In this document: piece after piece, positions 804 through 26,496 of the stretch
Position numbering within the stretch: the stretch's first letter is position 1
Layout of the letters: each line of letters opens with the position of its first letter
Source of the DNA: a virus
Reading direction: 5' to 3' (one strand)
Virus genome (UHGV): UHGV-0367640
DNA length: 26,496 nucleotides
The notes under the pieces: model-generated
Database searches by the model: none
What the model was told of the DNA's origin: nothing
Seen by the model: the letters and a program-made list of their open reading frames with translations, nothing else
Translations under genes and position numbers: made by a program

Positions 804-2003
804 ATGGTCGTGAGCGTTTTTATGTTTGACTTGACGTTTATTATCTTTATTTTATCTTCCATCCCTGTATTTTTTGTTTTTTGGATTGCCGGAAGGTTTA
901 AGAATGAATTAGTTGCAGACTCTTCTTTTGGATTGCGAGGTGATGACAATTTATCTTGCCTCAGGGGGTTGGCGGCTGTCATGGTCGCCCTTCACCATTC
1001 AGTATATATGTTCAATTATCTTTATCATGATAAATGGAGTATATTTTTGAATGATGGATTTGCGGCGAAGTCAAGCAACAATAGTTTATTGGCCATTGCA
1101 TATTTTGGCTCCATTCCAGTCATGATATTCTTTATGATTACAGGGTTTCTCTTCTTTAGAAAAATAATAAACAAACCAATAAACAATGCTGCAATATTTT
1201 TGTCGGCGCGAGTTAAGAGACTAATTCCAATGTATGCATTCATGGTGCTTTGCGTTGTTTGTGTTTCTGAATTAATTCGACCCAACGATAGCATTGGGAT
1301 TCACAACATTATTGTTGAAGTTGGCCGATATTTTACGTTTGGTATAATTGACCCTAATGGCCTTACACCTTCTATTCATGGATCTTTAATCGTTGGCGGG
1401 GTTATCTGGACTCTTGCATATGAGTGGGGTTTTTATATAATTTTACCATATATCTCTATGTTCGTAAAATCAATAAGAGATGCATGTTTTTCGGTAATAA
1501 TTATGCTTTTCTCGGTATTAATTGCTTACCGCCAAGAGCTTATCAGTGAAATGTTTGCCACTCTTCTCTTTTGCTTTATTGGTGGCTTTGTTGCAGCGCT
1601 AGCTTCTGGTTACCTAAAGAACAACGCTATCAAACAAGCCAATAGCGTAATGATGACAATTGTGTACCTTTTATCGCTTATTGCTGTCGCATACTGGCAG
1701 GACTTTAACATTTACAATGTTTACATAGTGATTCCGCTATTTTTGTTTTTTTTAAGTGCGTGTACTGGCTCCAAAGCTTTTCAAATTATAAACACCAAGT
1801 TCTTCAAGGTGGCGGGTTCTGTAAGTTACAGCATTTATTTGATGCATGGCTTAAGCATGGTAATGACCTTTAATTTCATTTCAAGCTCATTAAACTATAC
1901 TGAGTTTGCAGCAATATCTTTATCAATTTGTGCAATGATAAGTTGCTTAACTTACTTATACATTGAAAAACCCGCAATGAAAAAACAGTTTAAAAACAAT
2001 TAG
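804..2003 (+). CDS. Integral-membrane acyltransferase, acyltransferase-3 family (O-antigen/LPS O-acetyltransferase-like lysogenic conversion gene)
   Basis: 399-aa very hydrophobic multi-pass ORF with an N-proximal LRG-LAAVMVALHH motif typical of acyltransferase-3 enzymes; AT-rich by eye; convergent with the tail fiber assembly gene. Start uncertain: ATG 804 or ATG 822, no clear SD; a TATAAT at about 793-798 would favour a downstream start. Confidence 0.7.
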   Translation: MVVSVFMFDLTFIIFILSSIPVFFVFWIAGRFKNELVADSSFGLRGDDNLSCLRGLAAVMVALHHSVYMFNYLYHDKWSIFLNDGFAAKSSNNSLLAIAYFGSIPVMIFFMITGFLFFRKIINKPINNAAIFLSARVKRLIPMYAFMVLCVVCVSELIRPNDSIGIHNIIVEVGRYFTFGIIDPNGLTPSIHGSLIVGGVIWTLAYEWGFYIILPYISMFVKSIRDACFSVIIMLFSVLIAYRQELISEMFATLLFCFIGGFVAALASGYLKNNAIKQANSVMMTIVYLLSLIAVAYWQDFNIYNVYIVIPLFLFFLSACTGSKAFQIINTKFFKVAGSVSYSIYLMHGLSMVMTFNFISSSLNYTEFAAISLSICAMISCLTYLYIEKPAMKKQFKNN

Positions 2004-2011
2004 TTAAAATA

Positions 2012-2041
2012 TTGGTCTCTCAGCAAATGCTGAGTGACCAA
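2012..2041. terminator. Hairpin between convergent genes (candidate bidirectional terminator)
   Basis: TTGGTCTCTCAGC-aaat-GCTGAGTGACCAA, about 13-bp stem with one mismatch, between the acyltransferase stop (2003) and the tfa stop (2047); U-tract is weak on both strands. Confidence 0.4.
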
Positions 2042-2046
2042 TGAAG

Positions 2047-2478
2047 TTAAGCTGGCTTAATAGGCCATTCTATGTCGGGAGCCTTGGTAACATTAATAGC
2101 TTCCAATTCATCAAGATAATCCAGCCATGCACCATACTGATATTTTTCATCATTACGGAGCCGACCCATAGCCGCTTTTCCAGGCCATTGCTTGCTGTTC
2201 ATGTTAGAGTTGGCCTGTTCAATAAGAATCTGCCTCTTGCGTTCTGCTGCTGCTACCTGCTCATCATGAGTTAGTGCTGGTAGTTCACCCCATTCCGGAT
2301 AACCATCTTTTCCAGCGATGCGGACCTTCCCAGTTGGCGGTTCCTTTGTATATTCTGTAAATATATCTTCGTCACATTCAACACCATCAGTAGGCCAGCA
2401 ATTTCCAGAAATATAATCTTCTTTCATTGATGTTGGATAGAAAGCGTTATTTATTGCACTGTACACATATTTTTCCAT
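2047..2478 (-). CDS. Tail fiber assembly protein (Tfa/gpG-like chaperone)
   Basis: 143-aa ORF directly downstream of the tail fiber gene (3-nt spacing); size and sequence character typical of Tfa chaperones; ATG at 2478. Confidence 0.65.
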   Translation of the reverse strand: MEKYVYSAINNAFYPTSMKEDYISGNCWPTDGVECDEDIFTEYTKEPPTGKVRIAGKDGYPEWGELPALTHDEQVAAAERKRQILIEQANSNMNSKQWPGKAAMGRLRNDEKYQYGAWLDYLDELEAINVTKAPDIEWPIKPA

Positions 2479-2479
2479 T

Positions 2480-6156: not shown

Positions 6157-6174
6157 TTGGTAGGCTCCAGAAAG

Positions 6175-6204
6175 CAAAAAACCCGCCGAATGGCGGGTTT
6201 TGTT
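6175..6204. terminator. Rho-independent terminator (bidirectional)
   Basis: AAAAA-AACCCGCC-GAAT-GGCGGGTT-TTTGTT: perfect 8-bp GC-rich stem, 4-nt loop, A-run and T-run flanks; 17 nt downstream of the stop of the 131-aa gene. Confidence 0.7.
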
Positions 6205-6220
6205 AATTCACTGAATGAGT

Positions 6221-6616
6221 TTAAACAGCTTCATCAGTCTTCATTTTTTCCCACTGAGAAAAAATAGTCTTAACCTCTAAGAGAGATTGCTGTGCCATTG
6301 CTTTATCTATTGCACAGCTAGTGAGGTCATAATCTGCTTCATTTCGAGCCAGTCTCTGTTGCTCAAGTTTGTAAGCCATGGATTTTAGGCTTAATGGATC
6401 ATATGGCTCCAGTTTGTTTTCACTCTTATTTTTAAGATAAGAGATAAGACTGGAATGATGATCCTTCGTATAAGCAGGAAGACTGGTCAGATTCTCTTTT
6501 ATTTCATGGTAAAGCGCATAATATGCCCGCGAAATAGTATTACGATAACCAACTTCAGAATCCTCCGCAAAGCAACGCTCCGCTGAAGATAAAAACTCAG
6601 AGCTAGTTATAGGCAT
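6221..6616 (-). CDS. Small HEPN-like protein (putative toxin/RNase-fold component of an accessory cassette)
   Basis: 131-aa ORF, ATG 6616 with AAAGGGTG RBS about 5 nt upstream; overlaps the upstream gene by 14 nt; N-terminal ...ISRAYYALYHEI... resembles the conserved helix of classical HEPN domains and fits Rx6H; AT-rich by eye. Fold assignment is by motif only. Confidence 0.45.
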   Translation of the reverse strand: MPITSSEFLSSAERCFAEDSEVGYRNTISRAYYALYHEIKENLTSLPAYTKDHHSSLISYLKNKSENKLEPYDPLSLKSMAYKLEQQRLARNEADYDLTSCAIDKAMAQQSLLEVKTIFSQWEKMKTDEAV

Positions 6617-7373
6617 ATTTACACCCTTTCAAGCTATTTCTTTCAACGGAAAAACGTGCAATAAGATTGCAATCATCAAGTAAATCGATTGAACAAATTT
6701 CATCTGCAAGTCGCATATTCATTGCAACCACCTGTTCAGGGGATGCATTAACTACCTCAACCAGATAAGTCCCACCAGATGCACCGTTGATGTCAGCACG
6801 ATATTCAGTTGGAGGGAATTCAGCCATGACTCTATGAACAGCAAGAGCAACTTGCATGTATTGTTCTGAAGAGCATCCTGACTTTTTGTATGCTTCATCC
6901 ATATCGTGAATTACCTCCTGCAAGAAGGCTTCTGCGTCATCCCTATGTTCTTCTTGGGATAACATTTTGCAATGACGTCCAAAATATTCTACGCATTTTG
7001 ATAGTTTCCCTACCAAATACGCAACGCCACCAGCCCTATAAGTAAACCACTTGGTTGGATACTTATCAGCTAAAGAATAGATGTAGTAGTCCGATTTTTC
7101 GAGTAGAGAAAAACGCTCAAGCAGCTTACAAAAAATCCGCGCAAAGTTAACATCAGCATGTGGGAGGATAGCTTCAAGCATTTCAATCCCGACACTCACA
7201 TCACCTTTAGCAATATGAGCCAAAGCTACAAGCGTGTCAGCAGGCGGAGTACGCTTAGAGCCATACTCCGAGACCACCTCTCGAAAGGTCCAAATATCAA
7301 GAGGTTGACCACTATTGATTATCTTAACCAACTGGTCAAAACGCTCTTCCGCTTTCAGTTTTGGTCTTGCCAC
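6603..7373 (-). CDS. Hypothetical protein, first gene of the accessory two-gene operon
   Basis: 256-aa ORF, apparent GTG start at 7373 about 23 nt downstream of a predicted sigma70 promoter; no motif recognised; AT-rich. Confidence 0.55.
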   Translation of the reverse strand: MARPKLKAEERFDQLVKIINSGQPLDIWTFREVVSEYGSKRTPPADTLVALAHIAKGDVSVGIEMLEAILPHADVNFARIFCKLLERFSLLEKSDYYIYSLADKYPTKWFTYRAGGVAYLVGKLSKCVEYFGRHCKMLSQEEHRDDAEAFLQEVIHDMDEAYKKSGCSSEQYMQVALAVHRVMAEFPPTEYRADINGASGGTYLVEVVNASPEQVVAMNMRLADEICSIDLLDDCNLIARFSVERNSLKGCKYAYN

Positions 7374-7402: not shown

Positions 7403-7432
7403 ATTTTATGTTCGCGTATACAGTTTAGTCAA
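7403..7432 (-). promoter_or_regulatory. Sigma70-like promoter for the two-gene cassette
   Basis: On the minus strand TTGACT (7432..7427), 18-bp spacer, TAAAAT (7408..7403), about 30 nt upstream of GTG 7373, in the only sizeable intergenic gap of the tail module. Confidence 0.45.
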
Positions 7433-7493: not shown

Positions 7494-7835
7494 TCAACCA
7501 TCAACCTTTTTACACGGGAAAGATCCGATGATTTTCGGTGCATCCATGCTGTTCTGCAGAAGCTGGACGTTCAGGAAACGCGTTTCGGTGCCAGGGCGAC
7601 GAATGTATTCAAAGCCATAATTGTTGCCATCTTTAGCAGGCATAAGCCCCATATCAATCTTAATGCCATCAGCACCAAGATTTGTAATTTTCTGCGATGT
7701 GACGCGTTCACCGTTAATCATGTCCATTTCACCCAACCTTGCAGTGATGGTGTAAGGCCCACAATAAGCGGTGTACCCGCTTGCTGATGCCCCAAATGAC
7801 ATAAAGGCAACAATTAAAATGGCTAAGGCTTTCAA
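7494..7835 (-). CDS. Small secreted (signal-peptide) protein of unknown function
   Basis: 113 aa; N-terminus MKALAILIVAFMSFGASA|SGYT is a type-I signal peptide; two Cys in the mature part; TTG start at 7835 with GGGGG about 5 nt upstream, no in-frame ATG before an upstream stop; 2 nt after the hub gene stop. Confidence 0.5.
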   Translation of the reverse strand: MKALAILIVAFMSFGASASGYTAYCGPYTITARLGEMDMINGERVTSQKITNLGADGIKIDMGLMPAKDGNNYGFEYIRRPGTETRFLNVQLLQNSMDAPKIIGSFPCKKVDG

Positions 7836-12412: not shown

Positions 12413-12853
12413 TTAAAACTCCCCGAGAACCTGGTCAATCTTGCCGCAGTCAAACACCCACGGCATCGTATTACCGGCCTTAGCGTTGGCGTTATCCGGC
12501 TGTTTCTGGAACGCCACGCTGCGCGCCGTGATGATGTCTCCGCTCACCTTGTTTCGGATCACAATGACGTTGTTCCCCCAGGTGGCAGAAGACTGGCTCT
12601 GTGCGTTATACGCCAGCGACAATTTTTTATTTGTCGGTGATGTCTTCAGAAGGTTAACGGTAATCGTCCCGCTTTTATCTGCATGGAGACTGTGCATCAC
12701 TTCGCCATCAGCACCGATGGTCATGGTGTTTTTAGGACCGCCCATCGCAACCACAATCCCCTCTTCAGAACTTGCCGAACCGTACCCGAGATCAATCGAA
12801 CCTGTCGGCCCGGTCAGCGTCGCAGTGACATCCATAAAAGAATAGGTAGACAT
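12413..12853 (-). CDS. Tail tube protein
   Basis: 146-aa ORF directly after the sheath gene; ATG 12853 with GGGG about 7 nt upstream. Confidence 0.7.
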   Translation of the reverse strand: MSTYSFMDVTATLTGPTGSIDLGYGSASSEEGIVVAMGGPKNTMTIGADGEVMHSLHADKSGTITVNLLKTSPTNKKLSLAYNAQSQSSATWGNNVIVIRNKVSGDIITARSVAFQKQPDNANAKAGNTMPWVFDCGKIDQVLGEF

Positions 12854-12863
12854 TCACTTCCCC

Positions 12864-14009: not shown

Positions 14010-14012
14010 AGC

Positions 14013-14621: not shown

Positions 14622-14940
14622 AAGCTGTATACGGGTCGACGAAGGTCACACGGTAATCACGGCCCTGATACGTCACGATATCGGCATCACGGCCAGTCTG
14701 GCCCTGCGTCAGTCGCTCAGTCGTCACAATCAGAATTGCACCACTGATTACCTGCCCGGCCTGCATACGACGGTTTTCCAGAGAGCGATCAACAGTAACG
14801 ACTCCGGCAAACTGCTTTTTAACTTCGCTGTCGCTGCCGATCCCGTCCTCATCCACCGTTTGCACACGGCGTGTTACCCACAAATTGAAGTCGCAAAAAT
14901 CGGGGTCAAAAAGCACATCTGTTACATCAAGAGTCGGCAT
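14551..14940 (-). CDS. Phage head-tail joining protein (hypothetical)
   Basis: 129-aa ORF, ATG 14940 with GAGGGA 5 nt upstream. Confidence 0.5.
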   Translation of the reverse strand: MPTLDVTDVLFDPDFCDFNLWVTRRVQTVDEDGIGSDSEVKKQFAGVVTVDRSLENRRMQAGQVISGAILIVTTERLTQGQTGRDADIVTYQGRDYRVTFVDPYTAYGAGFVQAHCELLPFDGGIPVEQ

Positions 14941-15481
14941 CTTTATCCCTCACAACATGGGTAATAGCTCTGCGATATTGCCCGGTATCAATTAATGGTT
15001 TCGCCAGTTCGGTTCCCGGAGATTCGCCAGCAGCACGCCGGGCAAGTTCCAGTGTTGCCCCCTTGCGCCCCCGACGAGCCCTGGCTTCAACAGTACTGTC
15101 AGCAAGCGGCGTAAAGCCGGTAATGGTCATGTAACGCCTGACGCCATTAGCGGCCAGCGTTCCGGCACGGTTGAGTGCGCTTTCTGCTCCCGCAGCATTA
15201 CCATCAAGTGCAGCCTGCGCCGCGACTTTGAGCTGCGGCACCGTCTGCTCTTCTGCCGATTTAACGCCGGGAACCAGGTGAGGTCGTGGCGGGATGTTCT
15301 GCTCTGGTGAGCCGTATTCGTTGAGGTAACCGATGCCCGCATTACCAAACGGAACATCATCCCGCCCGCTGTCTTCCGAAGGGATGCCGACCAGCACATC
15401 TTTTTTGGTTAACGACCTGAGCGCATCCAGAATGGCCTTAGCGTTATCCACCCTCGTTGTTACACCGCTTTTGAAACTCAT
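14927..15481 (-). CDS. Phage head-tail adaptor / head completion protein (hypothetical)
   Basis: 184-aa ORF, ATGA overlap with upstream gene. Confidence 0.5.
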
Positions 15482-15885
15482 AGCTGGCGACCACCTGCAC
15501 CGAACATCGTGATCAACTGATAAAATTCAGCGCCATATCGGGTGTTATTCCAGAAACCTGCATCAGGATTCAGCGTCGCGCTGGTGTCATAACTGACGCT
15601 TACCTTATCCACGGACTTTGAGGACTGAACACCATTGGTTGAACCGCCCGGACCACCAGCCAGCATCGCCCGGCTGTCTGCCGCCCAGAGCGTCATGTAG
15701 TGCGCAACGAACAACCCGGCAAAGTACGGAAACAACTTTTTGCCGGTGACGTTTTCGCTCAGCAGTTCATCGGCCAGATTCAGACGAAACTGGATTTGCG
15801 CTTCGGGATATTTGGCAGGGTCAGCAAACTGCGGGAAGTCGCGGCGAAAATCACTTACCGCTGGCAGACTTTGATTCTTTGGCAT
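15478..15885 (-). CDS. Phage head-tail connector protein (hypothetical)
   Basis: 135-aa ORF, ATG 15885 with GAGGT 5 nt upstream. Confidence 0.5.
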
Positions 15886-16072
15886 TTTTTACCTCGTTAC
15901 GCGCGTCTGTGGCTTTGCCAACGGATACTTCCGCGTGCGCACGAGTGAACCAGTGCGTGGCAACGTCTTCCTCCACAGCATGACGGCCTTTAACAAACTC
16001 GCGCCGAGAACCGTCGGGAAGCGTGAGCACAAACGGGGTATGTGCGTGTATTACTGCATCATTTTTTGCCAT
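15851..16072 (-). CDS. Small phage protein, Lys-rich C-terminus
   Basis: 73-aa ORF, ATG 16072 with AAGGATGA RBS; overlaps the next gene by 35 nt. Confidence 0.45.
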
Positions 16073-16113: not shown

Positions 16114-16431
16114 TTAAATGCCATCAACGTACGAAATGGTTTCTTTGTACACTGGCTCGACTGCACCCAGCTTGCCGTAGTAAGTGACGATCTGATACAG
16201 ACCGCGATACTGCACCGGCACGCTCTGAAGCGGAACCAGCGGGTAGCGGACGTATTTTTTATCGTTGGTGTACGCAACCATGCGATCCTTTTTCCCCACA
16301 CCACGGCCTTTCAGCCATTTAACCGCGCGGATATTCAGCGGAACACCGTTCTGGTGATAGCTGATGGTGTTGGTCTGAAGATACGTCAACAGGGACTGGT
16401 TACCCGCAGATGAAACGATGATGCTGGACAA
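16114..16431 (-). CDS. Major capsid protein, C-terminal segment (downstream of an in-frame TAG)
   Basis: Same reading frame as 16441..17055, separated only by TAG 16443..16441 and three codons; no ATG and no SD in front of it. Confidence 0.5.
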   Translation of the reverse strand: MSSIIVSSAGNQSLLTYLQTNTISYHQNGVPLNIRAVKWLKGRGVGKKDRMVAYTNDKKYVRYPLVPLQSVPVQYRGLYQIVTYYGKLGAVEPVYKETISYVDGI

Positions 16432-16440
16432 CAGAGCAAA

Positions 16441-17055
16441 CTACTCAGGCGGGATCAGCAAATCACGCGGAACCACAGAGTAACCGGAAGCGGCCCACGC
16501 ATCAGACAGCGCCTGGTTAATGCTTGCGCGGATTTCGTCCGGTGTTGAGGTTGCCCACGTTTTGGCAGCGTTGTTGACAGGCACGCCGTCCAGGGTAACA
16601 AGGCCTTTCAGGTTTAATGCGGAATCGCCAACATATACCTGTTCATCGTTATCCATCTGCCATTTCAGTTGCATACCGTCATACTTCTGCGTATCAATCG
16701 GGCGGCCGACCTGCTGAGCAGCCTGCAATTCTATGACCGTCCAGCCAAGTTCCATCCCCCACAGGTTCAGCGGGTTACCGGATTTGCCGATATCCACGTT
16801 CACGCCAGCAATAGCGGTTGAGTCTTTGCCTACCCAGTTTTTGCCATTCGGATTTGCACCAGTACCCGCAGCGGCGAAGCTGGTATTCGTCCAGCTGGAA
16901 ATGTCATCTGCGATGGAGACATCTTCACGCAGTTGGATATCGCGGGTCCAGGTGTACCCCACCAGTGGCAGGTTCAGTGTCTGGTCGAGTCGTTCCAGCT
17001 CCCCGATGAGAAAGGCACCAGAGCTGTCAACGGTTGCCTGATCAAAAGTAATCAT
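16441..17055 (-). CDS. Major capsid protein, N-terminal segment (ends at an in-frame TAG)
   Basis: 204-aa ORF at the major capsid position, ATG 17055; too short alone for an HK97-fold capsid protein, and continues in frame into 16114..16431. Confidence 0.55.
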   Translation of the reverse strand: MITFDQATVDSSGAFLIGELERLDQTLNLPLVGYTWTRDIQLREDVSIADDISSWTNTSFAAAGTGANPNGKNWVGKDSTAIAGVNVDIGKSGNPLNLWGMELGWTVIELQAAQQVGRPIDTQKYDGMQLKWQMDNDEQVYVGDSALNLKGLVTLDGVPVNNAAKTWATSTPDEIRASINQALSDAWAASGYSVVPRDLLIPPE

Positions 17056-17066: not shown

Positions 17067-17573
17067 TTAAATCTTCCAGGAAATTTCTGCATTGCCGTTA
17101 GCATCACCGGCACCTGTGAATTCAGCGTTGGTCAGCACCACGTTTTTGCCACTGACTGACGTGGCCATGAATCCACCCAGCGGCACTTTGATGGATTCAT
17201 CAGTGGAGACGACAACGTATACCGGGTCGCCTTTTTTGATGGTGCTGGCATCAAAATCAGAACCGAGATTAACGGTCACGTAGCCACGCTTCATGGCGTC
17301 GCCCGGGAAGTTCTTGCCACTCCCCACCTGGCGAACCATGTCCGGCTGCGAAGTGGTCGGATAAGGGCGCACGTAGATCCCCTTCACCTTGTCTGCGGTA
17401 TCACCATCTGCCAGCGGCACGAAAAAACCGTCATCATCGTATTTACCAGCCAGCCCATAGGCAGCGAAGGCGTTATCGGATTTAAGGACCACCGGTTCGA
17501 CGGTTAAGTCCTGCGGGCGAGAGACAGCCCCGGCAATGCCAACAGGCATCCGGTACAGAAATACATTATTCAT
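17067..17573 (-). CDS. Capsid-associated structural protein (decoration-like, hypothetical)
   Basis: 168-aa Gly/Asp-rich ORF between scaffold-like and capsid genes; ATG 17573 with AAAGGGT RBS. Confidence 0.5.
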   Translation of the reverse strand: MNNVFLYRMPVGIAGAVSRPQDLTVEPVVLKSDNAFAAYGLAGKYDDDGFFVPLADGDTADKVKGIYVRPYPTTSQPDMVRQVGSGKNFPGDAMKRGYVTVNLGSDFDASTIKKGDPVYVVVSTDESIKVPLGGFMATSVSGKNVVLTNAEFTGAGDANGNAEISWKI

Positions 17574-17576
17574 TTT

Positions 17577-18797
17577 TTACCCTTTACGGTTTGCCCAGAA
17601 TTCGGCGTTTTGTTTGTTCAGGGAAGCGATACTGGTCATGCCCATGTTTGGGCGCTGTGCATCGCCGGTGGTGGCGCGGGTGTTTCGCCCTTTGGCAATC
17701 TCAGACACGGCATTAAACGCCATGTCGACCGATTGTTTCGGTAATTTGCGGATATCCGCATCGCCGACTATCTGGCGAACCAGCGTTTTGTCAGCAGAAG
17801 CCAGAACCTCGCGTTTGAACGCGGTCGGTTTCATCTTACGGCTCAGATCGATACCCGGAACGATAACTTCGGCACGCCAGGCTGAGTCACCAGTAATCGT
17901 GGTTTCCTCTTCATCGTCCTCGCCGTCACCGGTCGGATTATCGTCAGGCTTATTGTCGTTATCGCCCGTCGCATTTCCTTCCAGCTTAGCCAGCAGGGCT
18001 TTCAGTAATGTTTTGAGGTCATCATCACTGTCGCCGGTTGGACCTCCGCCCATCTCTGGTGCTTTGTCCGGTAGCGGTTGCTGCGGGGACAGGTTGATGT
18101 TGAGATTAACGCCCTGCGGCAAATCCCCCTCATCTCCTGTAACCGATGCGGGAGCCGACTCCACCAGTTCGTTCATGGTGTCAGCGTCACCCGTTTTGAT
18201 GGCCGTGCGCATGCGGGTCCACCAGCTTTTCTTTTGATTTGCCATTGTGTCTCTGTCTCCAATTGCACAACGATTTCCGGCTCTGCCTTTAGGGACAAGA
18301 GCCACATGGTTTCCGGTAATATCGACCTGCTCGGCTTTACCTGGCTCGGTCTGCTCATACTCCGCGTCATAGCCGCACGACACTTCGCGCAGGCCATCTT
18401 CGATAAGCTGAATGGCGCTTTCGTCTTTGACGATAAGGTCAGCCAGCATCAAATCAGACAGCTCACCCGTCCCGCGCCGGACATTCTGGAGGTGCCCGAC
18501 AGCAAGCTCTTTCCAGTTCTCGGGATTTACCAGCCGCACATTCCCGTTTTCATCTTCAGGATGCAGAATCGTGATGCTCATCCCTTCGAATGAGGCAAGC
18601 GTGGCCGGATGGAATACCTGCTCAGGAGAACGCGTGACGACTATTTCACCGAACTTATCGGGTTTCAGTTTTGGCAGGTCATCAGCACCATAGAGCTGCT
18701 TACCTGTTCGTCCTATCGGCACGTCTTTGCACAGCAACGAGCCGTCAGCCAGCTGATAGCGGGTTTCCCCCAGCCGGGTATTGAAAAAATATTTCAT
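17577..18797 (-). CDS. Putative scaffolding protein
   Basis: 406-aa ORF with long acidic low-complexity segment (GDSDDD...DDEEETT), between MuF-like and capsid genes; ATG 18797 with AGGT RBS. Confidence 0.55.
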   Translation of the reverse strand: MKYFFNTRLGETRYQLADGSLLCKDVPIGRTGKQLYGADDLPKLKPDKFGEIVVTRSPEQVFHPATLASFEGMSITILHPEDENGNVRLVNPENWKELAVGHLQNVRRGTGELSDLMLADLIVKDESAIQLIEDGLREVSCGYDAEYEQTEPGKAEQVDITGNHVALVPKGRAGNRCAIGDRDTMANQKKSWWTRMRTAIKTGDADTMNELVESAPASVTGDEGDLPQGVNLNINLSPQQPLPDKAPEMGGGPTGDSDDDLKTLLKALLAKLEGNATGDNDNKPDDNPTGDGEDDEEETTITGDSAWRAEVIVPGIDLSRKMKPTAFKREVLASADKTLVRQIVGDADIRKLPKQSVDMAFNAVSEIAKGRNTRATTGDAQRPNMGMTSIASLNKQNAEFWANRKG

Positions 18798-18811
18798 GTG
18801 TTACCTGCGAT

Positions 18812-19585
18812 TCAGGCGGGATAAGAATGGGAGGTGGGAAAAACGATTTCTTTATAACAGCGACAATTCGGGAGCTCGCCAGCGTGACCGGTCATGCCAT
18901 CAAGCGTTGGAGGTTTGCCCCATTCGACAAATTTACCTTCCATTTCCCGATGAGAATGCCTGACGTCACCATCTTCGGCTGTACGCCAGATATAACCATT
19001 CGAACCAATTGACAGCGCACGCGCCTGATCCAGCGCGCCGGTTGCACGTCCAAGTTCAGTACGGGCAATCAGGTCAACTCTGGACTTTGCTATATCACCC
19101 GATGCGGCTATTTCTTTAGCAAAATGTTCTGCTCTCCCGCCGGTCACAACAGCTTCTGTCGCCCGATTCTGGATGTCGTACACCCTGTCAGCCGCCTCGA
19201 GGGGGAGCGATTTGATGTACTTGACCTGTTCGGCGATGATGGATTGCATCACCTGGCCCACAGGAGCGCTTTCCACAAGATTGCGGAGCTCGCGACTGAT
19301 GTTCTTGCTGTGTTGCCGCCAAACTTTCTCGTTCTGCCGGGTTAGGTCCGCAGTAAAGTTTTCCGCGACCTTTGTCGCCCAGGGGGTGATGATTTTACTG
19401 TAGCGTTCCAGCGCCTCAATAATTTCCGTGATACTGTCATTTGAACCATCGTAGTGACCATTGACGATGTCTCCGACCGCCCGCGCTATCCTGCGTAGGC
19501 TGGTTCGATAGCGGATTTCCGCCTGACGGTTCCTGCGGTTCGTCATCAGGTTCGCCGATGCCGGGCGGCGCTTCATCTTCGGCAT
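18812..19585 (-). CDS. Head morphogenesis protein, MuF / SPP1 gp7-like
   Basis: 257-aa ORF directly after the portal gene; start uncertain because ATG 19585 (or 19549) overlaps the portal 3' end by more than 100 nt. Confidence 0.6.
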   Translation of the reverse strand: MPKMKRRPASANLMTNRRNRQAEIRYRTSLRRIARAVGDIVNGHYDGSNDSITEIIEALERYSKIITPWATKVAENFTADLTRQNEKVWRQHSKNISRELRNLVESAPVGQVMQSIIAEQVKYIKSLPLEAADRVYDIQNRATEAVVTGGRAEHFAKEIAASGDIAKSRVDLIARTELGRATGALDQARALSIGSNGYIWRTAEDGDVRHSHREMEGKFVEWGKPPTLDGMTGHAGELPNCRCYKEIVFPTSHSYPA

Positions 19586-20903
19586 TCTCGATGTCCTCGT
19601 CGGTAATGGATGCCCCGATGCCGGTTACGTCAGAATTTTCGCGCAAATCAGTCATAGCGGCTTTCAGTGTCATCAGACCATCACCCAGCGCCGTACTGAT
19701 TGCGTTGGTGGTGTTTAACGCCACCGTTGAGCGATCGACATCAGACATTTGCCAGAGCGGGTTAAACTCAAACGTGAAATCATCCGGGAGCGGCTTGCCA
19801 AGTTCCGAACGATGCATGATGTCCAGTATCCGACGCACCGGAAGACGTAAACGCCTCTCCTGCAACGAACTGATGCGGTCGTAATAGTTGGCAAGGTCTG
19901 CATCACCGGTAGAAAATCCTTTCGGGGACTGTCCGAACAACCGCACCAGTGGGATACCAACAGCGCCACTAATCTGTTCTGCAAACTGTGATAGGATGTC
20001 ATCCAGACCACTGAAGCTGTACTGATGCGTTTCAAACTTATCCCGCGAGTCCATGAGCGTCATGCCTTCATTGCTCTGGAACTGTCGAATCAGGTCGATA
20101 TTCTTCAGCAACGCTTCATACGCAGGACCACCAAGTGCGATAAGCTCGCGTAGCTTCTCCACGCTGTAGGTACGCAAATGCGCTTTGTAGACCAGCTGCG
20201 CCGCGCCGACAGTAGCGCTGTCGAACGCGGTAAGACGATCCCAGATACGCTCTACAACCGACATTCCCCATTCGTTCTCGGTCATCTTCTGCTGAAATGG
20301 CAGCGTGACGCCATCAAAGCGAATCAGTCGACTGTGATGAATGCGCCAGGCAGGAATTCCCGTTGCTGTGGTCACCACATCGTAAAACTCAGGTTTACCC
20401 AGGTCCGGCCCCATATCTTTAATGCGGCGGGTCAGTACCGGGTCAATCATCCAGCGGTCGAGCGGGAGAATCCCCTTAAACTTGCCCTTACCGATGGTTT
20501 CGGGTCGCAGCGGGGTCATTGGTGCCTGCCCCTCAATCATGATGAAACCCACCGCGCCGCCGTAGAGGCGCGACCATTTCAGCACGTCATTCAGCGCATC
20601 CCAGATTTGCAACTCATCCAGTTGTGATTCGAGAATGCCACGATCTTTTGCATCAATTTCCGAAGTGATGCGAATGCCTTTGCGGGTCATATCATCCGGG
20701 ATAGCATCGACTGCTTCGCCGATGATCCAGGATGAACGATAGGACCATTCCACCAGCATGCGGTTACGACTGGTGAAATTAGCCCGGTAGGTGGATGCTG
20801 AGTGCTGGTTAGGTGTCTGCATCCCTACGCGGGCAATAAAATTCTCATAACCATCAGCTGTGGCCTGCGCAGTTCGCCGCAGGGCTCGTTTGTTTCGTGC
20901 CAT
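19437..20903 (-). CDS. Portal protein
   Basis: 488-aa ORF after the large terminase (ATGA overlap at 20903), acidic C-terminal tail. Confidence 0.75.
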   Translation of the reverse strand: MARNKRALRRTAQATADGYENFIARVGMQTPNQHSASTYRANFTSRNRMLVEWSYRSSWIIGEAVDAIPDDMTRKGIRITSEIDAKDRGILESQLDELQIWDALNDVLKWSRLYGGAVGFIMIEGQAPMTPLRPETIGKGKFKGILPLDRWMIDPVLTRRIKDMGPDLGKPEFYDVVTTATGIPAWRIHHSRLIRFDGVTLPFQQKMTENEWGMSVVERIWDRLTAFDSATVGAAQLVYKAHLRTYSVEKLRELIALGGPAYEALLKNIDLIRQFQSNEGMTLMDSRDKFETHQYSFSGLDDILSQFAEQISGAVGIPLVRLFGQSPKGFSTGDADLANYYDRISSLQERRLRLPVRRILDIMHRSELGKPLPDDFTFEFNPLWQMSDVDRSTVALNTTNAISTALGDGLMTLKAAMTDLRENSDVTGIGASITDEDIENAEDEAPPGIGEPDDEPQEPSGGNPLSNQPTQDSAGGRRHRQWSLRWFK

Positions 20904-22525
20904 CAGGCCTGTCTCCCTAGCAGCTCCCAGATGTTCAGGGCTGAATTCATTGGGGCATAGTTGATCATCACCGAGTCGGCAAGGTTTGGCGACCGGGTTC
21001 CATCAGGCTGTTTATCAATAACGATTTTTCCCACACTATTAATGGAATAGGTCGGCTGCGAAAGCTCGATGATGAGTTTATCTTTGAGTGCCATGCTACT
21101 GCTGATTGAGATGATTTCGTCCGGGTTGTAAGCCATACCTTCAACCACGGCGCGCCAGGTATTCTGAAAAAGTTTACGTAACCGCCACCAGCTCTGGGCT
21201 TTGGCGTTAGCGAAGAAGTCCTTGTTAAGACGTGCGGCTTGCCCGTTGTCCCCGCGAACAGCTTCATCATCCGGATCAAATACCGCGCCACTACCTCGAA
21301 ACGGTGTGGCGAGTATTGACGGTCGGCGCGCAGCGTTACGCAGTTCGTTGATAGCGCGTGCATCGCCGCGAACGCCAGCGCCCAGCCCGTCCTCGTCAAA
21401 GCGAAACTCTTCGAGGTTGTCCTGTTCGCAAAAGCCGAAAACCTTCTCGACGGACTGATAAATGTCGCTGCCCACACCGGACCATTCCCGCACATTCTCC
21501 AGAAGGAAGCCATGACGGGTGGAAAAGGCATTTTTGTCCCTGCCTTCGTCGGCGACATCCATCGCGCCAAGTCGTTTGCCTGTTGGCTGGATCCCCAGTT
21601 TGATATGCGCATCAACGGCAGCCTGTACCCATTCGGATGGAATCAGGACGCCTTCCGCTGATGCGCTGTAGTTCAGATCAAGTTCCTGTGCCACCACCAC
21701 CGGATTATCGATTTTCTCGCATTCCCTGCGATACCACTCTTCATCCTTGCGAGGATCATCCCGCCAGTGGAATGTGAATACCGGTATCTTCCCGCCATGA
21801 CGCTTCTGAGCGAACGGGTTCGCCATGCCATTAACTGAACTCAGGTCAATACGGCAACGCGTCGTTTGTGACAACGCCGCATCAATCAGCAGAGGACGCT
21901 GAAGGAATGCAGCCTCATCAACCAGATAAAGCGTGGTACGGTCACCACGACCAATATTATCGCCAGCCTCGCCTTTGATAACGGCACCAGTTTCAGGAAA
22001 CTCAACACGCATATATGGCGCGTGCTTCTTCTCGCTCCACGAACCGCGAAACTCTACAGGTAGTGTTTCCACGAACTTGCGCGCCTTCCAGAACAATGCT
22101 TTCGGGTCACCGGTGCTGTCGACGTATTCCTCTTTACGGGAGCCGAAACCGATAACCATTTCTTTGTTGAAGAGACAAAGCGAGCAGGCCAGTCCGATCG
22201 CGGTCCAACTGAGCCCCATTTCACGGGATTTTTCGGTAATACCATTCTCCCGATTGCCCCAGCGTTCCATAATCCAGTGGATCCACTCCTCCTGCTTAGG
22301 GAAGAGTAAAAACGGAATGGTCACCGGCAGGCCATAATCAATATTACGCGGGTCCGTTGTCATGCCCCAGTCGATGATGAACTGAGCCGGATTGGTTCGG
22401 TAAAACTGTTTTAGTGCAGGCAATATTTCAGGATTCTGGCGAATGCGCTGTAAGCGTTCCATCCGCCATTCAAAAACCATCTGGTAATCAGGATGTTTAA
22501 AATCGAAGGGGAATGGTAACGGCAT
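20903..22525 (-). CDS. Terminase large subunit
   Basis: 540-aa ORF after the small terminase; deviant Walker A-like [11 protein letters not shown] and Walker B-like [10 protein letters not shown]. Confidence 0.85.
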
Positions 22526-22527
22526 AC

Positions 22528-23079
22528 TTAGCCCATCATTTTTCTATACGCCTCTGCAGCCTGCTCCGGCGTTAAGTTGGTAATTTCTGTTCTGACTGGT
22601 CCTCCATCAGCGCCAGTCACTTCATTTTTGACGTTGTCTTTAAACGCCTGAACAGAAACATGACGCCCAAGCAACTCAAGGTTTTTAACCTTATCAGGCC
22701 ATTTGATTTTCTTCAGAAGTGCGGCGCTATCTGCGGATACCATCTCCACGACATCCATTCCTGATAGCGTTGTGCGCCATACCTTAGGCCAGTCTTTAAT
22801 GGGTTTTAGCTCACCGTTTTGCAGGAGAATGTCGAGCACATCCATCTGGTCGATTTCAAGAAGGCGATTAAGTACGTATTCTGCATTTATTCCAACAGAG
22901 TCATTGCGTTGTGCTTTCAATTCGGAGATTCTGAATTGTATGTCAGGTTTTGACATGTTTTCGGACGCAGTACGGTTGGCTGTCTTTGCGCTGTACCCCG
23001 CCCGAATAGCCGCTTGCGTGGCGTTTAAATCGATGAGGTACTCGCGACAGAACATTTCTTGTTTGTCAGTGAGCGCCAT
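22528..23079 (-). CDS. Terminase small subunit
   Basis: 183-aa ORF, N-terminus [30 protein letters not shown] typical of small terminases; ATG 23079 with AGGGGA 5 nt upstream. Confidence 0.8.
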
Positions 23080-23106
23080 ATTTTCCCCTGCTGATAAGGT
23101 AAATAA

Positions 23107-23631
23107 ATGAATCCTGAAATTTTTGAATCAAAGTTCATAATGAACGAAGCAACTTGGCAACGAATTGAAAGGTTAGTAAATACTGAAGATGATATTGGTT
23201 TGGTTTTAAGAGTACATCTGATTACAGAAGCAATGATTGAGGCATTTTGTTGCGCCGCTGTAGGTAACCAAAATCTATTTGATGGATTTGGTGAAAACTT
23301 AACCATGACCTATGCCGCAAAAATTCAGCTAGCTGCCAACCTCGGCCTAAATGAACACTCCGTCGCAGAACTTAAACGCCTAAATAGAATAAGAAATGTT
23401 CGCTCTCATCAAATAGACAACCCGGAAATAACTGACGCAGAAATTGAATCATTACGAACATTTATTAGCCGAGGTGGTCAGGAAGATCTCATTAACTCAG
23501 CAAGATTCGGCATAAAAGTTGGAGACATTGAGCTGAATCTTAACCGTCCAGATGCCAATAATCGTGAAAAATTCATAGCTATTCTTGGCAGCATCATCCT
23601 AAGGCTCACTAAACAAGTTGCAGGACAATAG
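23107..23631 (+). CDS. Hypothetical accessory protein with HEPN-type Rx4H motif (candidate abortive-infection/defense gene)
   Basis: 174-aa plus-strand ORF, ATG 23107 with AAGG about 9 nt upstream, divergent from the small terminase start 27 nt away; motif LKRLNRIRNVRSHQ contains RNxxxH. Confidence 0.55.
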   Translation: MNPEIFESKFIMNEATWQRIERLVNTEDDIGLVLRVHLITEAMIEAFCCAAVGNQNLFDGFGENLTMTYAAKIQLAANLGLNEHSVAELKRLNRIRNVRSHQIDNPEITDAEIESLRTFISRGGQEDLINSARFGIKVGDIELNLNRPDANNREKFIAILGSIILRLTKQVAGQ

Positions 23632-24212
23632 AGATCATTGACTGAGCTAATTGATTGTTTTAGCGCATAAACCTATACCACAAAATAGCCACTTATCACG
23701 CTTCATCATTCAATTCTGGCGTGAACTGTATGCGCCTCACATTGTCGGGAGAGAAATACAGTCACTCTCCCGTCTCGATCACAAGCGGCACAAAGCCGTT
23801 AACCAACTCATGCTGAAATCGTGACGTCTTGCTCGTAACGGTTTCGCCTGTTTGGGTGGTTAACGTGATTTGGTAGATGTTGGACATTGAGAATCTCTTT
23901 ATCCGCTTGTGGGGATATCAGTTAAGTTATCCCGTGTAGGGTATAAGCCATTGTCGAGACCACTCATTGAATGGACTCTGCAATAACCGATGTCTTTCCA
24001 TCAGTCCGCCACCACAAAGAATCTTTTTTGCCATAAGGCAGGAGGTTCATCTTTCAGTGGCTGCCAGTGTTATTTCCCCACTTACTGGCTTGGGTTGCTT
24101 CGCGGTACTGCCGTAACTGGTTACCCAGAATAAATTCCGGTTTCATTATCAAGCCCACCCGTAAATGGGCTTTGTAATGAAGAGTTGTTATGAAAATTGC
24201 TCTAAACAAGCA

Positions 24213-24701
24213 TTAATAGCCATCAGAAGTAATCGCTACAGATTTCAATCCCTCAATGTCATCCTTGGACAGGGCGAACCATTCACCGTGCTTTCTCTTT
24301 GCGGCAAATTTGCGATGAAGCATGTTTTCAGTTTCTCTTCCACCAGGGATCAGGCACTCAAGCTTCAAGCAGTCTGGTCCAGAGTTGCCAAGCGATTTGA
24401 TGCGTTGTGGAATGTTGGATGAATACCCAATTTTGGTTAGCCCAGTTTTCTTCGATGACAAAACGTATACCTGAGGAGGTTCTTTTCTCTGGTCTTCCAT
24501 TACACGTCTCATTGTTGCCATAAGTCCGCCGTGCATCAGCATTTCAACAAAGAACGCTGACCGAACACCTGACGACTTAAGCATGCCAGAAAATTCACTT
24601 GCCAATTCCATTAACTCTGCGATGTTTTCAGGAACTTTTTGGCAGTTATCTTCCTTGTATAAGGAAATCATTCTTTGAAGCTTTTCTTCTAATTGGTTCA
24701 T
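24213..24701 (-). CDS. T5orf172-domain protein (GIY-YIG-like superfamily)
   Basis: C-terminal half VYVLSSKKTGLTKIGYSSNIPQRIKSL...HGEWFAL matches the T5orf172 signature; start placed at internal ATG 24701 (AAAGG RBS about 10 nt upstream) rather than 24857 of the ORF track. Confidence 0.6.
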   Translation of the reverse strand: MNQLEEKLQRMISLYKEDNCQKVPENIAELMELASEFSGMLKSSGVRSAFFVEMLMHGGLMATMRRVMEDQRKEPPQVYVLSSKKTGLTKIGYSSNIPQRIKSLGNSGPDCLKLECLIPGGRETENMLHRKFAAKRKHGEWFALSKDDIEGLKSVAITSDGY

Positions 24702-25042
24702 AGCGTCTTTACCTTTTAGAAAGTGAGCCTGTCTCACAGAAAAGCCGCCCGAGAGAGGTTGCCACCTATAACGGCATTTCTCAGGCTCACTTACTGAAAG
24801 GCTCTCGTTAATATGCGCGTGAGATGCGCGGTTTACTGCAGATGTAAAAAGCCCCACAAATGCGAGGCTAAATCCTGGTATTTGTAATGACTGGCTCTTA
24901 TCTCAACGCGGCCCCTTACCGCGCGCCAGATGCTCAATCTCAAGCATCAGCAATGAGATGTTTAATCTGGATTCACTCCAGAAGTGATCACCACCCTGTC
25001 TACAGAGCCAGATGTGAAGGATGATGAGTAAAATTATCGCTA

Positions 25043-25510
25043 TCATCGAAGGCATTGCGTCCTGATGTATTCCTGAAGCGTTCTCAGTGCTGTTTGGTCG
25101 CGGATAATTCCGTCCCGGACACCGAGAACGTTTCGTCCAGCAACTGGAGAGAGTTCGACGGTGGCATCATTGCCCATGCCGGAGGCGCTGGAGGCTTCGG
25201 CTGAGGATGGCACAGGGCATTTTCCTTTGACGAACACCCGACCACCATTATCAAGCTTGCGCCGAAGAGCATCATTTTCAGCTTTCGCATCAGCTAACTC
25301 CTTCGTGTATTTAGCATCGAGTGCATCAGCAGAACGCTGGCGCTGCTGCATGTCAGTAATGGTGGCGGTCGCCTGCTTCAGCTCACTGACTTTTTTATCG
25401 CGCTGCTCTTTGTAGGCGATGGCGTTATCACGGTAATGATTAACAGCCCATGACAGGCAGACGATGATGCAGATAACCAGAGCGGAGATAATCGCGGTTA
25501 CTCTGCTCAT
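25043..25510 (-). CDS. Rz: i-spanin Rz
   Basis: 155-aa ORF with N-terminal TM segment, closely resembles lambda Rz; ATGA overlap with R. Confidence 0.85.
25084..25290 (-). CDS. Rz1: o-spanin Rz1 (lipoprotein, embedded in the +1 frame of Rz)
   Basis: 68-aa ORF wholly inside Rz; [19 protein letters not shown] lipobox followed by Pro-rich [11 protein letters not shown], as in lambda Rz1. Confidence 0.8.
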
Positions 25511-25983
25511 GCCTCAATCTCTCTGACCGTTCCGCCTACTTCTTTGAATTTTGCAATCAGGCTGTCAGCCTTATGCTCGAACTGACCATAACCAGCCCCC
25601 GGCAGTGAAGCCCAGATATTGCTGCAACGGTCGATTGCCTGACGGATATCACCGCGATCAATCATCGGTAAAGCGCCACGCTCTTTAATCTGCTGCAGTG
25701 CAACAGCGTCCTGGCTTTTCGGAGAGAAGTCTTTCAGGCCAAGCTGCTTACGATAGGCATCCCACCAACGGGAAAGAAGCTGGTAACGTCCGGCTGCTGT
25801 TGATTTGAGTTTTGGGTTTAGCGTGACAAGTTTGCGAGGGTGATCGGAGTAATCAGTGAATAGCTCTCCGCCAACAATGACGTCATAACCATGATTTCTG
25901 GTTTTCTGCCGTCCGTTATCAGTTCCCTCTGACCACGCCAGCATATCGAGGAACGCCTTACGTTGATTATTGATTTCCACCAT
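25507..25983 (-). CDS. R: Endolysin R (lambda-type lytic transglycosylase)
   Basis: 158-aa protein matching lambda R nearly residue for residue as I recall it ([24 protein letters not shown]...). Confidence 0.9.
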
Positions 25984-26290
25984 CTTCTACTCCGGCTTTT
26001 TTAGCAGCGAAGCGTTTGATAAGCGAACCAATCGTGTCAGTACCGATGTAGCCGATGAACACGCTCGTTATATAAGCGAGATTGCTACTTAGTCCGGCGA
26101 AGTCGAGAAGGTCACGAATGAACCAGGCGATAATGGCGCACATCGTTGCGTCGATTACTGTTTTTGTAAACGCACCGCCATTATATCTGCCGCGAAGGTA
26201 CGCCATTGCAAACGCAAGGATTGCCCCGATGCCTTGTTCCTTTGCCGCGAGAATGGCGGCTAACAGGTCATGTTTTTCTGGCATCTCCAT
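25967..26290 (-). CDS. S: Holin S (lambda class I holin, dual-start)
   Basis: 107-aa protein near-identical to lambda S as recalled; two in-frame ATGs (Met1 at 26290, Met3 at 26284); the upstream leader matches the lambda late leader. Confidence 0.9.
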
Positions 26291-26496
26291 GTCTTACCCC
26301 CAATAAGGGGATTTGCTCTATTTAATTAGGAATAAGGTCGATTACTGATAGAACAAATCCAGGCTACTGTGTTTAGTAATCAGATTTGTTCGTGACCGAT
26401 ATGCACGGGCAAAACGGCAGGAGGTTGTTAGCGCGACCTCTTGCCACCCGCTTTCACGAAGCCAGCCATTGCGCTGGTTTTCTTTTATGCAAAGCA

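Follow-up and report, generated by a model that had tools for sequence, protein, structure and literature searches.

Phage SEN34 is genetically lambda-like and was found by electron microscopy to have a long contractile tail, giving it the morphology of a myovirus (PMC5261728). Morons are well established, as are conversion genes adjacent to the attachment site (att) and immunity genes that precede the packaging genes (PMC3594210, PMC11364771). Sequence upstream of the packaging module is a preferred site, already recognised, for morons and immunity genes, including the Tai genes of lambdoid phages (PMC11364771). HepS, from the Salmonella prophage Gifsy-1, has been characterised experimentally as a solo HEPN abortive-infection tRNA nuclease (PMC13043305; PDB 9oij); it fires on foreign siphovirus tail-tip proteins, is evaded by the variant of Gifsy-1 itself and cuts tRNA anticodon loops (PMC13043305). 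The sequence compared here with these systems is UHGV virus genome UHGV-0367640, a stretch of 26,496 nucleotides (nt) referred to in full as the window, which is the late arm of an Escherichia coli prophage integrated at sbcB.

Taken as a whole, the window is best explained, with a probability of roughly 0.8, as the late arm of a SEN34-like (Brunovirus-type) lambdoid myovirus that has swappable cargo slots and for which a mechanism of exchange is put forward below. It has two building blocks, a lambda-type lysis cassette and one module for packaging, head and contractile tail, whose families are of the E217/Pam3/XM1/KPP10 type. Three slots, designated A (between Rz and terS), B (between the hub and spike genes) and C (between the fibre genes and att), behave in genome comparison as replaceable cassettes, or morons. 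The overall architecture was already published with SEN34 in 2017, and the window adds an example rather than a new idea. Structural comparisons were made throughout with a set of 24 window proteins, and genome counts are from searches of 5426 complete E. coli genomes.

Packaging, head and tail genes

A preliminary description of the window proposed that three lineages had been joined (a lambda lysis cassette, a non-lambda head and a contractile, Mu-like tail) and that cargo accumulates at the junctions, which were regarded as recombination hotspots. Parts of this account were borne out. None of the packaging and head genes is lambda-like: TerS belongs to Terminase_2 and TerL to phrog_2, and these are followed by Phage_portal_3, a MuF-domain protein, DUF2213, a cement protein (XM1_gp53/Phage_cement) and a DUF2184 major capsid protein. 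The tail is of the contractile type, with a sheath protein (DUF3383; phrog_205, 'tail sheath'), tube and tape-measure proteins and a complete baseplate of the simple kind, and the SEN34 relative has a contractile tail by electron microscopy. Pfam families matched in the tail were DUF3383, KPP10_Orf10, Phage_TAC_15, Dit_like, Pam3_gp18, E217_GP41, PF18352 and DUF2612.

The assignment of head and tail to separate lineages did not hold. Both are found together, in the same gene order, in SEN34, vB_EcoM-611R5, Hafnia yong1, Yersinia YP3 and the seven E. coli prophages that were read across the module. Compared with SEN34, 22 of the 24 structural proteins are collinear and show 64–96% amino acid (aa) identity; the fibre matches over its N-terminal 96 aa only (68%), and TerS is essentially unmatched. 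Head and tail form one co-inherited module of the SEN34/Brunovirus type. Separate exchange of head and tail was considered, because at the nucleotide level yong1 matched the window in the head only and YP3 in the tail only. It was rejected, since both hold the whole collinear set, and the partial matches are attributed to uneven divergence rather than to module swapping.

Likeness of the tail to that of Mu is confined to gene order (sheath, tube, chaperone, tape measure, hub, spike, gp25-like, J). When the 24 structural proteins were searched by tblastn against positions 9000–36717 of Mu, TerL alone was matched, and weakly (29% over 220 aa, E 8e-4), with no detectable similarity for the other 23. 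None of the Mu-named tail families in Pfam was matched, and for the sheath, tube, spike, gp25-like and wedge1 proteins this held at a cut-off as loose as E ≤ 1. The sole Mu-named match was the generic head domain Phage_Mu_F (PF04233, E 4.6e-17), which is widespread outside Mu-like phages and is not diagnostic. Membership of the Mu group was rejected on the basis of these searches. A three-lineage origin can still point to lysis genes that are lambda-type beside virion genes that are not, to cargo that varies at all three sites, to the Mu-like order of the tail genes and to the presence of the MuF domain; but head and tail are co-inherited in every relative read, the proteins and tail families lack Mu counterparts, and hub and spike lie in one module. 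Its Mu and three-lineage parts are already largely refuted, and it is regarded as unlikely overall in comparison with a SEN34-like late arm.

Lysis cassette

Positions 25263–26461 are 95.7% identical at the nucleotide level to lambda 45015–46213, a tract that spans the leader (171 nt upstream of S), S, R and the 5′ part of Rz. It ends at a breakpoint within Rz, at about 25263. The lambda-like character previously given to the leader and all four lysis genes is thus confirmed for the leader, S and R and does not extend to the 3′ part of Rz or to Rz1 (Table 1). Nearly the same cassette (96–98% identical) is present in the P22-like podophages HK620, Sf101, CUS-3 and Kapi1 and in lambdoid siphophages such as mEp213, and the lambda-type lysis cassette is common currency among all lambdoid phages. 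The regulatory context is also lambdoid: in the 4.94-Mb E. coli assembly GCA_964042585.1, which is 100% identical to the window over 17107–26496 (9390 bp, from the cement protein to S), the genes that follow immediately upstream are those for a Q-type antiterminator, NinH, RusA and YbcO.

Holin S differs from that of lambda at codon 2 (26285–26287), where Met-Glu-Met (K2E) replaces the Met-Lys-Met of lambda and five relatives, and the dual-start motif Met1-Lys2-Met3, which gives antiholin S107 and holin S105, is absent from the window. Lys2 is the residue that makes the longer product of the lambda gene, S107, an antiholin; lysis timing may therefore be altered.

Breakpoints and identity profile

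Breakpoints were located by BLAST of the window against nine relatives. The ends of homology recur at 2824–2834 or 2942, at 6199–6201, at 7492–7504 or 7866–7869, at 23079–23085 (the start of terS) and at 22710–22716 (inside terS). The first of these falls within the fibre gene and separates a conserved N-terminal part from a swapped C-terminal part. P22-like prophages match 22634–23952 at 98.3%, a segment comprising the 5′ two-thirds of terS (22634–23079), the 174-aa gene of slot A and a 41-aa open reading frame (ORF). Because this match enters terS, the joint on the packaging side is placed inside terS (22634–22716), and because the segment is closer to P22-like prophages than terS is to the SEN34-like relatives, a recent crossover inside terS probably brought the cargo with it. 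Small terminases recognise DNA through the N-terminal part and bind TerL through the C-terminal part, and a crossover at this point would separate the two. Over terS, the SEN34-like relatives are 93–97% identical to the window, below the 98.3% of the P22-like prophages.

Identity to relatives was also profiled in 500-bp windows. Strain E2348/69 is 100% identical at 5501–7500 and 10501–12500, falling to 83–90% at 12501–13500 and 77–87% at 19001–20000, whereas strain 09A19CPO009 is 99–100% identical at 17001–22000 and 78% at 7501–8000. Within the structural genes, identity to relatives swings between 77% and 100%. On this profile the prophage is a mosaic assembled from a pool of its close relatives, and exchange is pervasive inside the module. 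The view that junctions are recombination hotspots is not sustained by these data: the joints on the lysis and packaging sides lie inside Rz and terS, and breakpoints are found inside the portal/MuF, sheath/tube, tape-measure and spike genes as well, which also counts against the joining of three lineages at their junctions.

Accessory genes at three sites

Accessory genes are present at all three places where the preliminary description had put insertions at module junctions, and their contents differ among close relatives at each. Variability of the cargo is thus strongly confirmed, and uniform gene content in all relatives, which would have refuted the preliminary description, was seen at none of the three. 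The hub–spike site, however, lies within one module; it is a moron slot inside the baseplate operon and not a module junction. The guanine-plus-cytosine (GC) content of the three accessory regions is 0.37, 0.41 and 0.43 (0.41 for slot B), compared with 0.53 for the structural module. No cargo protein has a name in NCBIfam.

Differential loss would account for the same distribution if an ancestor had held the accessory genes and relatives had lost them, the sites being points of decay rather than of insertion or exchange. Two genes of slot B, a TPR+HEPN pair, are indeed found in that slot in Yersinia and Rosenbergiella too, where they have diverged as much as the flanks, and a humD remnant near att and an amber codon in the capsid gene speak for ongoing decay. 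Relatives nevertheless hold unrelated genes of similar size in the same slots rather than remnants, the cargo regions are AT-rich relative to the module, and the identical 174-aa gene beside terS of unrelated P22-like modules requires transfer. Loss is therefore considered improbable, more so than the joining of three lineages, and replaceable cassettes remain the preferred explanation.

Slot A

The 174-aa gene of slot A (cargo A1) is divergent from terS, with 27 nt between the two start codons. Its family carries the motif RNxRSH (Rx4H), in which R96 and H101 are invariant in 14 sequences. A profile of the family matched HepS (PDB 9oij; E 2e-4) over 56 residues around the motif, with Rx4H aligned to R100–H105 of HepS, in which H105 is catalytic. 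The AlphaFold2 model has a pLDDT of 89.9, and the top four Foldseek matches in the PDB are HepS (TM 0.54–0.57; 20–21% identity over alignments of 169–181 columns), followed by other helical-bundle proteins. By its motif and predicted four-helix fold the protein belongs to the HEPN superfamily.

Among the complete E. coli genomes, two contain the 174-aa gene and none covers 80% of slot A. In relatives, the place beside terS is taken instead by Rha, KilA-N, GIY-YIG, IS3 or various small genes on the plus strand. P22-like prophages encode an identical 174-aa protein, likewise adjacent to their terS; the exact protein is indexed in 1200 blocks of the assembly collection, and three of the four contexts shown are P22-like, with most of the collapsed duplicates belonging to them. 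The family as a whole was found at the lysis–packaging junction, on the strand opposite the late genes, in nine of nine prophage contexts read. Its distance from the terS start is no more than about 60 bp in eight of them; in the ninth (Citrobacter), two small genes intervene. Five packaging types accompany it, namely P22-type Terminase_3, the TerL of the window, Terminase_6C, a 543-aa TerL from Pantoea and lambda GpA in Citrobacter; the distant members, from Enterobacter, Pantoea and Citrobacter prophages, are beside three different terminase types. A search of the literature returned no description of a HepS-like family faithful to this junction.

Sequence of the adjoining A2 region is common to HK106 and other phages. 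Downstream of its T5orf172 gene, 23883–24180 (~300 bp) lies in a junction region that matches more than 4,000 E. coli genomes, and in the records read it stands beside Rha, KilA-N, GIY-YIG or Gp49-family genes. It may be a second homology arm for exchange of slot A. A promoter of the backbone, located in the 5′ end of terS and driving the slot A cargo, was considered and dropped, as no consensus site was found upstream of 23107.

Slot B

Slot B, an AT-rich gap of 1.7 kb with three genes, is closed by a strong terminator-like hairpin just upstream of the ribosome-binding site of the spike gene, 22 nt before its start codon. The hairpin is present in 17 of 18 aligned relatives whatever the cargo, including the empty slot; its stem is essentially conserved, its loops vary, and Hafnia shows a compensatory change. 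Hairpins are found at the same position in Yersinia and Rosenbergiella prophages. Upstream of it the sequence is unrelated between cargo types, and homology to relatives starts at 6199–6201. This terminator belongs to the conserved backbone and not to the cargo. Two genes of 256 and 131 aa (B1 and B2), overlapping by 14 nt, are preceded by a sigma-70-like promoter, and another terminator-like hairpin lies near this promoter-like site, between the pair and a 113-aa gene. With a promoter-like site, a hairpin terminator, a GC content below that of the module and an otherwise empty slot in strain DX6, the locus has the predicted hallmarks of a moron.

The 113-aa protein is a near-constant resident of the slot, present even where the slot is otherwise empty, and is fast-evolving (31–32% aa identity in Yersinia and Rosenbergiella, versus 45–61% for the hub). 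One E. coli relative has in its place an unrelated protein of 154 aa, again with a signal-peptide-like start. B2 was identified through its family: five of ten members match the HEPN family PF05168 (best E 2e-6), and the window copy is itself below threshold and 71–89% identical to them. The family profile matches PDB 2hsb (UPF0332) and 9xbd (HEPN) with the motif aligned, and a profile search of the full library gave 791 small relatives at E ≤ 1e-3. The invariant motif, R91-N92-E-A-D-Y96, has Tyr in place of the catalytic His of Rx4-6H; the form R-N-x-S-D-Y also occurs in the HEPN protein 9xbd. For B1, no sequence-level relative was found in the PDB, and the fold search returned generic TPR arrays, with nothing specific for the C-terminal domain.

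Hub and spike flanks were found in 351 of the 5426 genomes, of which 10 have the cargo of the window. The diversity of the slot was estimated from a spread sample of these (40 records and 14 fetched loci). It is empty save for the 113-aa protein in strain DX6, and it holds the 256+131-aa pair of the window in E2348/69 and 2018-10-2CC. Other contents are a 243+142-aa allele, a 258+123-aa allele annotated as HEPN, a 190-aa protein with a YafO toxin, DUF2335, DUF4282, a 184+56-aa pair, a 241-aa protein and further genes in SEN34, yong1 and YP3. A 170-aa protein (vB_EcoM-611R5 32662–33174; another relative, 618–1130) has the motif IRNNLFHG (Rx4H); it gave no Pfam or PADLOC match and is probably, by this motif, a third and unrelated HEPN-type occupant. 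Within the spike gene, 5460–5692 (230 bp) has no nucleotide match in DUF4282-cargo relatives or SEN34, and over this stretch same-cargo relatives show 100% identity; the allele of the spike and the cargo of the slot appear linked. The literature searched held no description of a hub–spike slot in SEN34-like phages.

Outside E. coli, prophages of Yersinia enterocolitica (57% and 75% aa identity for the two proteins) and Rosenbergiella nectarea (43% and 50%) have the TPR+HEPN pair in this slot as well. The flanks have diverged to the same extent (61% and 45% for the hub, 62% and 41% for the spike, respectively), so the pair is taken to be a long-standing resident allele, and the earlier view that cargo simply accumulates does not apply here. 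By analogy with HepS, the slot could be an old dedicated locus in which a TPR+HEPN sensor–effector pair is locked to its own baseplate alleles and senses the tail proteins of competitors. The linked hub and spike alleles would then be self-tolerant versions, and recombination would be unable to part the weapon from its immunity. Consistent with this are the co-divergence of the pair with hub and spike across three genera, the three deep alleles of the pair within E. coli, and the identity of same-cargo relatives through the adjoining 5′ half of the spike gene (100%, versus 83–95% in other-cargo relatives). Simple linkage explains all three observations as well, and a sensor–effector locus is considered a doubtful, speculative possibility beside that of an exchangeable moron slot.

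Slot C

The acyltransferase of slot C is encoded by DNA of about 35% GC, and its region is common to only 2 of the 5426 genomes. Relatives carry a gtr-type three-gene glucosylation cluster, other acyltransferases, HumD, or an invertase with alternative fibre segments in this slot, and HumD or an S24 pseudogene at the position of the humD remnant. A 45-nt direct repeat (354–398 and 596–640; the copies 80% identical) lies on either side of 242 bp that strain EH01-18-04-A lacks. The acyltransferase gene is itself bracketed by a 22-nt inverted repeat (683–704 and 1989–2010, 20 of 22 positions complementary), the right arm of which overlaps the stop codon; about 0.02 such pairs would be expected by chance in 3.3 kb, as a rough estimate. 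The inverted repeat could be a footprint of how the acyltransferase gene moves.

Capsid gene and other features of the window

The major capsid gene is the only structural gene that differs in length from those of relatives. It contains an in-frame amber codon (TAG, 16441–16443, codon 205) at a place where all nine relatives have Gln (CAG in eight, CAA in one), a stop overlooked in the preliminary description. Unless this stop is suppressed or reflects a sequencing error, the prophage is probably defective and has lost the ability to make capsids. Of the Walker motifs ascribed to the large terminase, a Walker B-like LYLVDE can be seen by eye, and a canonical Walker A was not found by a simple motif search; TerL also contains KSREMGLS, which we presume to resemble the deviant P-loop of lambda gpA. 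The proposed frameshift in the tail assembly chaperone gene is plausible, as a slippery T TTT TTG at about 12001–12007 is followed by a −1 frame that stays open to 11769 (about 78 codons), into a DUF6889 part that is annotated separately in relatives. The DUF2213 protein has an isoelectric point of 4.85 and belongs to a PHROG family named 'head maturation protease'. For the spike gene, the start at 6156 was set from the 753-nt length of the genes of relatives, and its family assignment rests on the accession PF18352 and its description text. A scan of the window against Rfam matched no RNA family, and the window contains no tRNA genes. Features are listed in Table 1.

Table 1. Positions of the annotated features along the window, in order of coordinate
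Feature	Positions	Strand	Basis or remark
Host flank, dacD–sbcB side	1..257	.	Prophage-free genomes (K-12, Nissle) match exactly; match stops inside sbcB
humD remnant (umuD-like, S24 peptidase)	258..640	-	One genome matches 1-640 under 'HumD family translesion DNA polymerase'
Cargo C: acyltransferase_3, O-antigen-type acetyltransferase, 399 aa	804..2003	+	PF01757 E 2e-22; phrog_3333 'O-acetyltransferase' E 1.8e-44
Tail fibre assembly protein	2047-2478	-	Caudo_TAP
gp53-like tail fibre	2480-3193	-	Gp53-like_C; C-terminal part swapped among relatives
wedge1/DUF2612	3175-3855	-	Phage_Wedge1 recorded on orthologues
Baseplate J	3852-5051	-	
gp25-like sheath initiator	5051-5404	-	PF10934 Sheath_initiator recorded on orthologues
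Central spike with Apex motif	5404-6156	-	PF18352, N-terminal domain of phage central spike protein
Conserved terminator-like hairpin closing slot B	6178..6201	-	10-bp stem with 6 GC pairs, then T-run
Cargo B2: small HEPN-domain protein, 131 aa, UPF0332-like	6221..6616	-	Invariant R91-N92-x3-Y96
Cargo B1: 256-aa protein, TPR-like helical array and small C-terminal alpha/beta domain	6603..7373	-	
Sigma-70-like promoter upstream of the pair	7403..7432	-	TTGACT, 18 nt, TAAAAT; 10/12 consensus matches, best in region
113-aa small protein	7494..7835	-	phrog_3443 E 2.5e-46; N-terminal hydrophobic signal-peptide-like segment (by eye)
Hub	7838-8899	-	
Pam3-gp18 plug	8902-9204	-	
Dit-like protein	9204-9791	-	
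Tape measure	9791-11779	-	
Tail assembly chaperone with -1 frameshift extension	11769-12409	-	
Neck/head-completion genes, neck terminator (14013-14561), sheath DUF3383 (12864-14009), tube (12413-12853)	12413..16072	-	
Major capsid gene (DUF2184), amber-interrupted	16114..17055	-	Stop at codon 205 in translation
Cement protein, DUF2213 protease/scaffold, MuF-domain protein, portal, TerL, TerS	17067..23079	-	Domain/family matches
TerL	20903-22525	-	phrog_2
TerS	22528-23079	-	Terminase_2
Cargo A1: solo HEPN protein, 174 aa, HepS-like	23107..23631	+	Invariant R96-x4-H101
Cargo A2 region	23762..24701	-	41-aa ORF (23762-23887), shared lambdoid segment (about 23883-24180), T5orf172/GIY-YIG-like 162 aa (24213-24701)
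Lysis cassette: Rz, Rz1, R, S, upstream leader	25043..26496	-	Lambda-type down to about 25263
Rz	25043-25510	-	62% identical to lambda
Rz1	25084-25290	-	Embedded in Rz; 47% identical to lambda
R	25507-25983	-	97.5% aa identical to lambda
S	25967-26290	-	97.2% aa identical to lambda

Integration site and contiguity

Nearly all phage genes are on the minus strand, and in the order of late transcription the window runs from the leader, S, R and Rz/Rz1 (26496–25043) through a 2-kb AT-rich gap to terS and onwards to the fibre genes, the acyltransferase, the humD remnant and host DNA. Because the match of prophage-free genomes ends at 257 inside sbcB, the end of the prophage (att) is placed at about this position; dacD abuts position 1 of the window in relatives. 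The prophage group is present in about 6% of complete E. coli genomes.

A chimeric contig, assembled from different prophages of one genome, could give the same appearance of joined modules. In its favour, E. coli genomes carry several lambdoid prophages that have repeats in common, a median of two places per genome match the window, and no complete RefSeq genome covers more than 86% of it. Against this, the stretch from the cement protein to S, including both cargo A genes, is contiguous at 100% identity in the chromosome-level assembly GCA_964042585.1, although that is probably the source genome; 2834–23079 is collinear in E2348/69 and 596–5460 in strain EH01-18-04-A; and every joint falls where other complete genomes also switch sequence. 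An assembly artefact is thus highly improbable, far more so than either of the other alternatives to a genuine SEN34-like late arm.

Proposed exchange and its implications

We propose that the cassettes are exchanged by homologous recombination in conserved flanks, which would be the hub and spike genes for slot B and the 5′ domain of terS together with the shared sequence downstream of Rz for slot A. Exchange of this kind would account for the way in which homology to every relative breaks off within a few bases of the same positions. A lysogen would transcribe the cargo from promoters of the cargo itself, and the slot B hairpin would shield the baseplate genes from this transcription; in lytic growth, Q-antiterminated late transcription would pass through the hairpin. 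Against other phages, the HEPN proteins may work as RNases of the abortive-infection or toxin type. The acyltransferase may modify the O-antigen by acetylation, giving lysogenic conversion.

Several points weigh against parts of this proposal. Cargo expression in the lysogen and the roles in defence and serotype conversion are things that we infer. The slot B promoter is a consensus match only, with a similar site in Rosenbergiella and none found in Yersinia. Divergence of the slot B pair in step with the tail genes from genus to genus speaks more for an allele of long residence than for freshly acquired cargo, and Tyr in place of the canonical HEPN His in B2 makes its nuclease activity uncertain. 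At the identity and TM values given above, the match of A1 to HepS is remote. Finally, PADLOC identified no known defence system among all cargo and ten alternative slot proteins, giving only marginal matches to HEPN_IX (E about 0.009), PDC-S57 (weak, for the T5orf172 protein) and PycTM.

What the analysis provides is a precise map of three exchangeable slots in one prophage group. Slot B cycles through at least ten contents and is rich in RNase-toxin-type genes (three TPR+HEPN alleles, a solo HEPN and a YafO pair), and the HepS-like solo HEPN family keeps to the lysis–packaging junction in nine contexts with five terminase types. The HEPN cargo supplies concrete candidates for anti-phage defence screens, and the slots are a clean natural system for studying cassette swapping by flanking homology.

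Comparison with known systems

SEN34 and the induced E. coli prophages vB_EcoM-611R5, -606R2 and -683R1 share the packaging, head and contractile-tail gene set and its order with the window, vB_EcoM-611R5 being 97% identical to it at the nucleotide level. SEN34 is also alike in its lambdoid Q, lysis and nin context, in an O-acetyltransferase between the fibre genes and att and in small genes between hub and spike. It differs in its lysis cassette, which has no similarity to S and R and about 72% nucleotide identity over Rz only, in an essentially unrelated terS, in the other cargo of slots A and B and in an intact capsid gene. The morphology seen by electron microscopy is that of SEN34; the prophage of the window is known from its genes, and its capsid gene is broken.

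The resemblance to the lambda lysis cassette comprises the leader, S, R, the 5′ part of Rz and the embedding of Rz1 in Rz, whereas the 3′ part of Rz and the whole of Rz1 come from another allele and the dual start of S carries K2E; downstream of the cassette nothing resembles lambda bor, cos or Nu1. Like HepS, A1 is a standalone HEPN protein (about 175–210 aa) with no obvious partner gene alongside, lies in a prophage accessory locus, has an aligned Rx4H motif and finds in HepS its best structural match in the PDB, although identity and structural similarity are low. The slot B pair recalls type II/VII toxin–antitoxin HEPN and YafO modules in having two overlapping genes with the small RNase-fold protein second, and a YafO-toxin cassette occupies the slot in other genomes. 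The usual HEPN antitoxin is a minimal nucleotidyltransferase (MNT); in slot B the partner is a 256-aa TPR-like protein rather than an MNT or a small antitoxin, and the HEPN motif ends in Tyr, not His.

The three slots are closest in kind to the morons of HK97 and HK022, the P2/P4 hotspots and the Tai genes, all of which are AT-rich, variable and independently transcribed genes between conserved late genes. Slot A is at the same position as that described for Tai genes in lambdoid phages (PMC11364771), whereas slot B differs from known morons in that its terminator hairpin is part of the conserved backbone and not of the cargo. The hub–spike slot, closed by a terminator of the backbone, and the HepS-like family faithful to its junction each add a new instance to a known kind.

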